A stretch of 64,000 nt of DNA, from sequence record PQ471515.1; one strand, 5' to 3'. This stretch comes from Escherichia phage Turkey3. Both the position numbers and the translations under genes were made by a program. Numbering within the stretch: position 1 is the stretch's first letter; each line of letters starts with the position of its first letter. The notes below the pieces were generated by a model, which was not told the DNA's origin, searched no databases, and was given only the letters and a program-made list of their open reading frames with translations. Positions 3,560 through 4,058 of the stretch are shown here, one piece after another.

Positions 3560-3582
3560 GGGAGCCTTAGCTCCCTTTTTTT
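3560..3582. terminator. intrinsic terminator, probably bidirectional (hairpin GGGAGCC-TTA-GCTCCC plus T-run)
   Basis: Perfect inverted repeat followed by TTTTTTT on + strand and preceded by A-rich run; stop codon of the convergent minus-strand gene lies in the loop. Confidence 0.6.
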
Positions 3583-4058
3583 ACATCTACCATATTTAAT
3601 TTGCCTTCCTTGATAAGCTTTCTGGCTTGCTTAACACGAGCAGCATTGTTTGCACCAGGGATAACACCTAACTCTTCCAGTATTGCATTCTGTTGTCCTG
3701 CTGGGAGCCTTTTAAACTTATTCGTATCGATTGTTAGTGCAGTGTGATGTATAACTTGCTCATCTTCAGGAATGCTGTTATTACGCTCCAGATAATCCGC
3801 AAGATTTCGTAGTACCTCGTATAAGGGTTTATCGGTTAAGTGCTTCATATAGCGATTAAAGCTGTTCTGTACTTTACCTTCCCATGCGTTCACTTCGTTC
3901 TGGAGAACTTCACGACAGTGTTGATTCTCGAAGTGATAGTGATCAAGTACTGGCTTAGTTATTGGTTCCTTAATTATAGGATCAATTCCTTTTTGCTTCT
4001 TTAGTAATTCATTTCGATAGTTTGCAGCTTCTTTACTATCTTTTAATCTTTTCTTCAT
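3567..4058 (-). CDS. endonuclease VII-family protein (T4 gp49-like HNH-type nuclease or mob-like homing endonuclease)
   Basis: LDHYHFEN...NAWEG...FNR resembles T4 endo VII catalytic core (LDHDHELN...NAAEG...FNR) by recall, but CxxC zinc ligands are absent; ATG with GGGGA RBS. Confidence 0.5.
   Translation of the reverse strand: MKKRLKDSKEAANYRNELLKKQKGIDPIIKEPITKPVLDHYHFENQHCREVLQNEVNAWEGKVQNSFNRYMKHLTDKPLYEVLRNLADYLERNNSIPEDEQVIHHTALTIDTNKFKRLPAGQQNAILEELGVIPGANNAARVKQARKLIKEGKLNMVDVKKGS

Follow-up and report, generated by a model that had tools for sequence, protein, structure and literature searches.

A gp49-type endonuclease VII homologue without the zinc cysteines in Escherichia phage Turkey3 and its relatives

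The stretch of DNA analyzed here, hereafter called the window, comprises 64,000 nucleotides (nt) of Escherichia phage Turkey3 (PQ471515.1). The gene in question is a coding sequence (CDS) on its minus strand (3567..4058, ATG start), and its product is a 163-amino-acid (aa) homologue of endonuclease VII (endo VII), the gp49 of phage T4, that lacks the zinc site made of four cysteines (Cys4). Very probably, this gene is the gp49-type resolvase of the phage, i.e., an orthologue of T4 endo VII that has the His-Me finger or 'DHHRN' active site and is without the zinc knuckle. It is also likely that a large and mostly phage-borne branch of the endo VII family, with hundreds of 50%-identity clusters from Rak2-like phages, rV5-like phages and some podophages, dropped Zn(Cys)4 in favour of a non-metal staple centred on an Asp or a single Cys. 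The identity of the gene as endo VII-like is already known and not new, as most records of its relatives (dozens) label it "endonuclease VII" or "EndoVII packaging and recombination endonuclease". What appears to be new is that the protein cannot bind the structural zinc that defines the textbook T4 enzyme, and neither can most of its nearest metagenomic relatives.

Kinship to T4 endonuclease VII

A preliminary description of this DNA had pointed to a 163-aa minus-strand open reading frame (ORF) with the endo VII catalytic signature, and this description holds. The motifs VLDHYHFEN, NAWEG and SFNR are all found in the protein, and D39, H40, H42, R49, N57 and E60 are all present. The ATG start is unambiguous, as the stop-to-stop frame reaches just 3 codons further upstream, and a Shine-Dalgarno-like GGGGA (4062..4066, minus strand) lies 3 nt before it. 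The ORF is not there by chance, because it has more than 120 homologues, with E values down to 1e-101, and because the ratio of nonsynonymous to synonymous substitutions (dN/dS) between this gene and that of phage 121Q is 0.065 at a dS of 0.87. Such a ratio indicates that the gene is under strong purifying selection.

The alignment places D40, H41, H43, N62 and E65 of T4 endo VII at D39, H40, H42, N57 and E60 of the window protein, and T4 R54 at R49. Thus, D39-H40-Y41-H42 (3933..3944, minus strand, as are all motifs of the protein) matches T4 D40-H41-D42-H43, which provides a metal ligand and the catalytic histidines. R49 (3912..3914) is the R of the 'DHHRN' signature, and the role of its T4 counterpart has been described (PMC6083498). 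The segment N57-A-W-E60-G61 (3876..3890) matches T4 N62...E65-G66, where the second metal ligand is found and the His-Me helix starts. None of D39, H40, H42, N57, E60 and G61 varies among 120 homologues of at least 56% identity, nor does R49 in a 73-sequence alignment (A1).

The kinship to T4 endo VII is visible solely via profiles or fold comparison, and a sequence search of the PDB with the single 163-aa protein gave no match even at E<=10. With profiles, PHROG 423 ("endonuclease VII") matches residues 1-148 of the protein with an E value of 2.8e-34. A second profile was built from zinc-retaining proteins only, namely T4 gp49, the SP6-like ACG-C91 gp31, and seven Cys4 and three Cys3His metagenomic proteins, and it scores the 163-aa ORF at 98 bits (E 8.4e-29). 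The T4 gp49 sequence used in this work is 100% identical to the annotated gp49 of RB51 and other T4-like phages. A Pfam match of the protein to GAAD was rejected as spurious.

Structure prediction, which the preliminary description had proposed as a check, agrees with the profiles. The AlphaFold2 monomer model, made from the 73-sequence alignment, has a mean predicted local distance difference test (pLDDT) score of 93.6, and scores of 97-98 over residues 21-30 and 51-60. When the model was compared to the PDB by Foldseek, the only matches at E<=1e-5 were structures of T4 endo VII (1e7l, 2qnf and 1en7), with template modelling (TM) scores of 0.52-0.66. These matches extend over 157-162 columns, and therefore the likeness covers the whole T4 architecture and not merely the catalytic finger. 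The elements of the T4 fold are predicted at full length in the model, i.e., the N-terminal helix, the His-Me finger, the long helix and the helical C-terminal domain, which in T4 serves DNA binding and dimerization.

Loss of the zinc site

The preliminary description had also stated that the four zinc cysteines are gone, and the column counts bear this out. T4 C23, C26, C58 and C61 align with D26, I28, Q53 and V56 of the window protein, respectively. The remnant of the first zinc knuckle is D26-P27-I28-I29 (3972..3983; T4 C23-L-I-C26), and that of the second zinc pair is Q53-N54-E55-V56 (3891..3902; T4 C58-N-L-C61). The protein has six histidines and a single cysteine, C48, which aligns with none of the four positions. 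As residues 1-47 contain no Cys, no alignment register gives a Cys at the first zinc pair. All 121 close-clade sequences have Asp at the C23 column. The C26 column holds I/T/L/V and the C58 column Q/D/E, and at the C61 column the residue is V (95 sequences), C (19 sequences) or I/S/T. The 'DPI[TIL]' of the Cys-less clade lines up with the 'CP[LI]C' of the canonical relatives, with the Pro kept.

A replacement zinc site made of His or Cys was considered and rejected. C48 is not a stand-in zinc ligand, as relatives that keep the zinc site also have a Cys there, and T4 has a Val. Among the histidines, H40 and H42 serve in catalysis, and T4 has the 'IH' of H104 as well.

In the literature, the endo VII motif is characterized by its high conservation and given as "DHDH flanked by CX2-4C and CX2C" (PMC6083498). 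More generally, His-Me finger nucleases occur with or without a zinc knuckle, and many are stable without it (PMC5714182). Full-text literature searches found no paper discussing a Cys-less endo VII. The cysteine loss thus appears to be unremarked, and the window protein would be zinc-independent.

To see how far the Cys-less state extends, 1.84 billion cluster representatives were searched with a profile, which gave 612 family members at E<=1e-3. Zinc states were counted in the 148 complete sequences among the best 150 of these 612, each representing a 50%-identity cluster. Asp is found at the first zinc position in 80 of the 148, and 74 of these 80 are without any ligand Cys. Another 56 keep the first Cys only, except for two that also have a second ligand Cys. 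The complete Cys4 site is found in seven and Cys3His in three, while the remaining two have another residue at the first position. Of the 148 nearest 50%-identity clusters, about 92% therefore have a degenerate zinc site. In the wider family, the second position is usually Ile/Thr/Leu, the third D/H/Q/E/N/S and the fourth Val/Ser/Thr/Ala. The DHHN residues are kept in 147 of the 148 distant representatives, and the exception carries E for D. The catalytic Glu is often replaced by a hydrophobic residue among the 148; the window protein retains it (E60).

A rough and weakly resolved neighbour-joining tree of 149 columns requires a minimum of 27 state changes, mostly between D and C at the first position. 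On this rough tree, 9 of the 11 zinc-complete sequences (T4 included) group near the T4 root, and the pattern suggests that the zinc site was lost once or a few times, long ago. Judged from these comparisons, the cysteines were truly lost, the loss is old, and it extends very widely, as a trait of a large subfamily and no oddity of the Turkey3 phage.

One metagenomic homologue, P0178 (446 aa), has an insertion of ~290 aa inside the catalytic motif (VLDH / C...insert...N / CHQNGHIRAV). The insertion gives weak matches to LAGLIDADG_3 (E 0.0015) and Intein_splicing (E 0.016), and it is probably an intein that interrupts the active site of a Cys-less endo VII.

As to what may hold the fold together, T4 endo VII has a Zn(Cys)4 'treble-clef' knuckle that fastens the loop ahead of the beta-hairpin to the beginning of the catalytic helix, and this knuckle is missing from the window protein. 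A polar contact between Asp26 and Gln53, together with small hydrophobic packing, might keep the fold without a metal. We propose an Asp-Gln hydrogen bond and a hydrophobic fill because the first and third positions are polar (Asp, and Gln/Asp/His/Ser, respectively), the second and fourth are small hydrophobic or beta-branched, and the Pro is kept.

A different explanation is that the protein is an endo VII resolvase which still has a structural metal, held at a remodelled site where Asp26, Gln53 and backbone or water coordinate Mg2+, Ca2+ or a weakly bound Zn2+. The invariant Asp at the first Cys column of all 121 close-clade sequences would suit such a site, as would the third position of the wider family, where all common residues are potential ligands, and the first position, which toggles only between D and C on the rough tree. 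However, the residues at the second and fourth positions leave two side-chain ligands at most, and the third position is here a Gln, which is a poor zinc ligand. The pLDDT of 97-98 around the site is reached without a cofactor, which is weak evidence in the same direction, and a zinc knuckle is dispensable for the stability of many His-Me finger nucleases (PMC5714182). A remodelled metal site is thus unlikely, and we favour the gp49-type resolvase with a metal-free staple.

A probable resident resolvase gene at a conserved locus

The first 8 kb of the window are 99.8% identical to Escherichia phage WPEC5, a Rak2-like jumbo phage. Eight further jumbo phages of E. coli reach 97-99% identity, and other phages of the group among the matches listed, such as phAPEC6 and UB, ~83-85%. 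At protein level, the identity of the endo VII is 100% in WPEC5, 90% in 121Q and PBECO4, 68-71% in Klebsiella RaK2 and Cronobacter GAP32, and ~61% in Pectobacterium CBB, Erwinia phages and a Vibrio phage.

The gene is part of a conserved neighbourhood. A gp47/SbcD-like ORF (339..1388, plus strand) is followed by a 715-aa gp46/SbcC-like ORF (1401..3548, plus strand), which is convergent with the endo VII gene and ends 18 nt from it, in agreement with the convergence noted in the preliminary description. The order gp55-gp47-gp46 -><- endoVII ... gp26 baseplate hub ... structural gene ... gp20 portal is found in fEgEco12, RaK2 and CBB. In Vibrio phage 2.275.O, the core gp47-gp46 -><- endoVII is kept, with a gp26-like baseplate gene nearby. 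Insertions at the locus consist of one gene in RaK2 and CBB, and of one ATPase gene in the Vibrio phage. A full-length copy of the endo VII gene is found in ~72 phage records, one per genome, and a tblastn search gave 366 places in 365 records, i.e., one copy per genome in all but one.

The preliminary description had named a separate canonical gp49 elsewhere in the genome, together with a lack of nuclease activity, as evidence against its reading. Such a gene was searched for in a proxy genome of ~375 kb, which consists of the window and the remaining ~310 kb of fEgEco12, a 98.7% identical relative. Six-frame ORFs of at least 40 aa (3380 segments) were compared with the Cys4/Cys3His profile, the family profile and T4 gp49. 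No second endo VII-like ORF, and hence no separate canonical gp49, was found in the ~375 kb, and the next best match had an E value of 0.57. Neither RuvC nor RusA is annotated in the proxy genome. The annotated HNH or putative endonucleases g253, g309, g508, g522 and g570 of fEgEco12 were rejected as endo VII candidates, being unrelated by these profiles, and they are likelier mobile nucleases than the endo VII gene.

The reading of the gene as the resident resolvase is supported by purifying selection, by the fixed position beside gp47/gp46, and by its being the sole endo VII-like ORF in the proxy genome. This agrees with a previous report that the junction resolvase of jumbo-phage subgroup 2.2 is T4 endo VII-like, with a pattern complementary to that of RuvC (PMC7824862). 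T4 endo VII acts as a dimer on branched junctions and nicks one strand per subunit, according to Raaijmakers 1999 and Biertümpfel 2007 as cited in PMC6083498 and PMC5714182. By analogy, a dimer of the window protein would bind four-way junctions and other branches that arise from recombination-dependent replication, and each subunit would nick one strand through a single-metal active site. D39 and N57 would hold the catalytic Mg2+ and H40 and H42 would be the catalytic histidines, with R49 and E60 nearby. In this way, concatemers could be freed of branches and made ready for packaging by the terminase. The phage encodes UvsX, UvsY, gp32 and gp46/47, and the window carries a T4-type set with gp32, UvsX/RecA, a UvsY-like protein, helicases, gp43, gp45, terminase, portal and major capsid protein. 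Junction cleavage, dimerization, zinc independence, the substitute for zinc and late expression are all features that we infer.

The preliminary description had left the choice between a zinc-independent resolvase and a mob-like free-standing HNH endonuclease. Its first option is backed by homology, fold, catalytic residues, synteny and single copy, and its second does not suit a core gene at a fixed position. A free-standing homing or 'mob-like' endonuclease (DHHRN, F-CphI-like) would cut a specific site in competing phage genomes, and the DHHRN motif does serve homing and restriction endonucleases besides resolvases (PMC6083498). Moreover, several HNH endonucleases and a single 'putative endonuclease' are annotated in the part of fEgEco12 beyond the window, and the window region itself encodes a GIY-YIG nuclease, so mobile nucleases evidently prosper in such a genome. 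However, the endo VII gene occupies the same locus in all Rak2-like genera examined (Asteriusvirus-like, RaK2, CBB and the Vibrio phage), which is the pattern of a core gene. It is neither in nor beside an intron or intein, and it is the sole junction resolvase candidate found in the genome. The position of the motif also argues against homing. In the resolvase clade, the motif is N-terminal and the proteins align along the whole T4 endo VII, while the published members of the homing and restriction clade have a C-terminal motif (PMC7824862, PMC6083498). In the window protein, the motif is found at residues 22-61 of 163, followed by a T4-like C-terminal domain, and the whole chain superposes on T4 endo VII, which fits the resolvase clade. 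A role in homing is therefore highly improbable.

Even less credible is a decayed or dead gp49 relic, or a non-catalytic branch-binding or structural protein: point mutants of T4 endo VII that lose a zinc ligand are inactive, the Pfam score is under the threshold, and one phage record annotates a 'structural protein', but the catalytic residues are invariant down to 56% identity with DHHN kept farther out, dN/dS is 0.065, the predicted fold is confident and complete, and no replacement resolvase was detected in the proxy genome.

Several points weigh against the gp49-type resolvase without a zinc knuckle. The profile search with the Endonuclease_7 family that the preliminary description had called for does detect the protein, and leaves it below the level of formal membership: Pfam Endonuclease_7 (PF02945) scores 16.4 bits (E 0.0085), and the gathering cut-off of 23.6 is not reached. 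By comparison, T4 gp49 scores 77.9 bits, Cys4 relatives 48.8 and 55.2 bits, and other Cys-less relatives 16.9-36.9 bits. Across these scores, the low value tracks the missing cysteines and divergence. Some other Cys-less proteins exceed the cut-off and are thus already formal Pfam members, and the Rak2-like clade is by the same scores the most divergent. Additionally, the C-terminal dimerization domain PF09124 goes undetected by sequence in the 163-aa protein, and phmmer with T4 gp49 alone against the ORFs of the proxy genome ranks the window ORF best with an E value of just 0.062. Beyond the window, the search for a second gp49 covered fEgEco12, i.e., a 98.7% identical relative, and resolvases of other families were excluded by annotation only. 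The single mutants C23S and C61S of T4 endo VII are inactive and fail to bind DNA, according to Giraud-Panis 1995 as cited in PMC6083498. Therefore, loss of the zinc site is not trivially neutral, and compensation is assumed. The contact between Asp26 and Gln53 is a conjecture, and no biochemical data for any Cys-less endo VII member were found in the searchable literature.

The sequence around the gene carries candidate expression signals. The octamer CATAAATA (4089..4096, minus strand), 30 nt before the ATG, resembles the T4 late promoter (TATAAATA) and is a putative late promoter. The same octamer is found 32 nt before the start of the neighbouring structural gene annotated in fEgEco12 (motif at window position 6049), and the phage encodes the late sigma factor gp55. 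Together, the CATAAATA octamers and the gp55 gene therefore suggest late expression, and the endo VII gene is probably expressed late. The ATAAATA core is equally distant from the gene in 121Q and Vibrio phage 2.275.O, and RaK2 and CBB do not have it in the corresponding upstream stretch. In the whole window, late-promoter-like octamers of the form [TC]ATAAATA are found at 6049, 10041 and 39943 on the plus strand and at 4096 and 39979 on the minus strand, and TATAAATA at 11935, 13144, 22870 and 34139 on the plus strand. The [TC]ATAAATA octamers precede structural genes and the endo VII gene at a similar distance from the start codons, a placement that is consistent with gp55-dependent late transcription.

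At the other end of the gene, an intrinsic terminator hairpin is predicted on the minus strand (3548..3578, with the hairpin at 3578..3557). It consists of AAAGGGAGC-TAAG-GCTCCCTTT and a T-rich tail, and its 9-base-pair stem has 5 GC pairs. The endo VII stop codon sits in the loop, and the hairpin is common to the convergent gp46, with T-rich tracts flanking both sides. Phages G17, Munch and UE-S1 have an annotated terminator at the same place, and a terminator scan gave six terminator-like sites in the region compared to 0.6 expected. The hairpin between gp46 and endo VII is thus probably a bidirectional terminator.

The preliminary description had further placed the gene next to a candidate non-coding RNA, and a conserved element of ~200 nt is indeed found in the non-coding gap just upstream of the gene (4215-4432, minus strand). 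The element is much better conserved than the neighbouring coding DNA, with ~94% identity to 121Q and ~81% to CBB and GAP32. It occurs in 3-5 copies per genome and at 259 places in 61 Rak2-like phage records. The copies of fEgEco12 (L007 9909-10106, L008 11615-11879 and L011 4170-4346) all have the same orientation. Compensatory double changes are found in 14 of 43 predicted pairs when five copies are compared, and several G-U pairs favour the minus strand of the window as the RNA. Searches for Rfam families, tRNA and tmRNA gave no above-threshold match in the element or the upstream gap. The minimum free energy z-score of the whole 401-nt upstream stretch is -0.16, which is insignificant; the alignment nonetheless shows covarying stems. 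Probably, this is a structured RNA (or DNA) element of a new kind that is present in multiple copies.

Two further observations concern other genes of these phages. The large terminase subunit (gp17-like) of the window is encoded by three plus-strand ORFs of 228, 114 and 445 aa (27243-27929, 27901-28245 and 28208-29545), which overlap by ~30-40 nt and are annotated as three separate CDS in fEgEco12. The split could be due to a frameshift, a split gene or an intervening element. Outside the window, fEgEco12 carries ~15 tandem minus-strand paralogues of ~370-390 aa at 332283-348732 (L011 ~27400-45700), annotated as 'chromosome condensation regulator' or 'DNA condensation protein' (RCC1-like).

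Significance and comparison with known systems

If the Cys-less enzymes are active, they would show how ordinary side chains can take the place of a treble-clef zinc staple. Phages would then resolve and package their DNA with a junction resolvase that is free of the zinc supply and insensitive to thiol oxidation. The family would also offer a natural series, from Cys4 and Cys3His to Cys1 and Asp, for studying how a treble-clef zinc site evolves away. In addition, the loss would explain why Pfam under-detects the branch, and the branch may be a source of laboratory nucleases for junctions or mismatches that are poor in cysteine and free of zinc. The result is a structural and evolutionary footnote and no new mechanism. 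The resolvase role of the family in this group of jumbo phages is already published.

The closest known system is T4 endo VII itself (gp49; PDB 1EN7, 1E7L/1E7D and 2QNC/2QNF; PF02945 and PF09124). The two proteins are of similar length (157 aa in T4 and 163 aa here) and share the order of secondary structures, the identical D-H-x-H...R...N...E residues, and a T4-type recombination and packaging context. They differ in that their identity is 20-24%, the loop between the two beta-strands is ~4 residues shorter in the window protein, all four zinc cysteines are replaced, and the C-terminal domain is missed by PF09124. Additionally, the T4 gp49 gene lies beside nrdD, while the window gene lies beside gp46/47 and gp26.

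Outside the Rak2-like phages, the nearest proteins are those of rV5-like phages (Vequintavirinae; rV5 gp093 and Hena1) and of some Autographiviridae (Ralstonia phage BHDTSo81), and the identity is 48% over residues 5-95, i.e., the catalytic half. Like the window protein, they start with 'G-x-D-P-I' and have a Cys4 set that is incomplete or missing, and they are annotated as endonuclease VII. Unlike the window protein, they pass the Pfam cut-off (31.8 and 36.9 bits), and their C-terminal parts diverge or are shorter. The rV5 protein further differs by keeping the Cys at the fourth position and by having extra cysteines nearby. The Cys4 endo VII proteins of SP6-like and phiKMV-like podophages (ACG-C91 gp31) and the metagenomic P0146, P0253 and P0264 belong to the same family and have the N-terminal motif and identical catalytic residues, but they keep CxxC...CxxC and score 49-55 bits with Pfam.

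More distant comparisons share only parts of this architecture. F-CphI and the DHHRN homing endonucleases, as well as Hpy99I, have the signature D, H, H, R and N (PMC6083498). However, their motif is C-terminal or embedded, they are sequence-specific or associated with introns or methylases, and they keep the zinc cysteines, and the window protein shows no such trait. The HNH domain of Cas9 is likewise a His-Me finger free of a zinc knuckle, but it belongs to a different family, has HNH and not DHHRN, carries other decorations, and is without the resolvase architecture.

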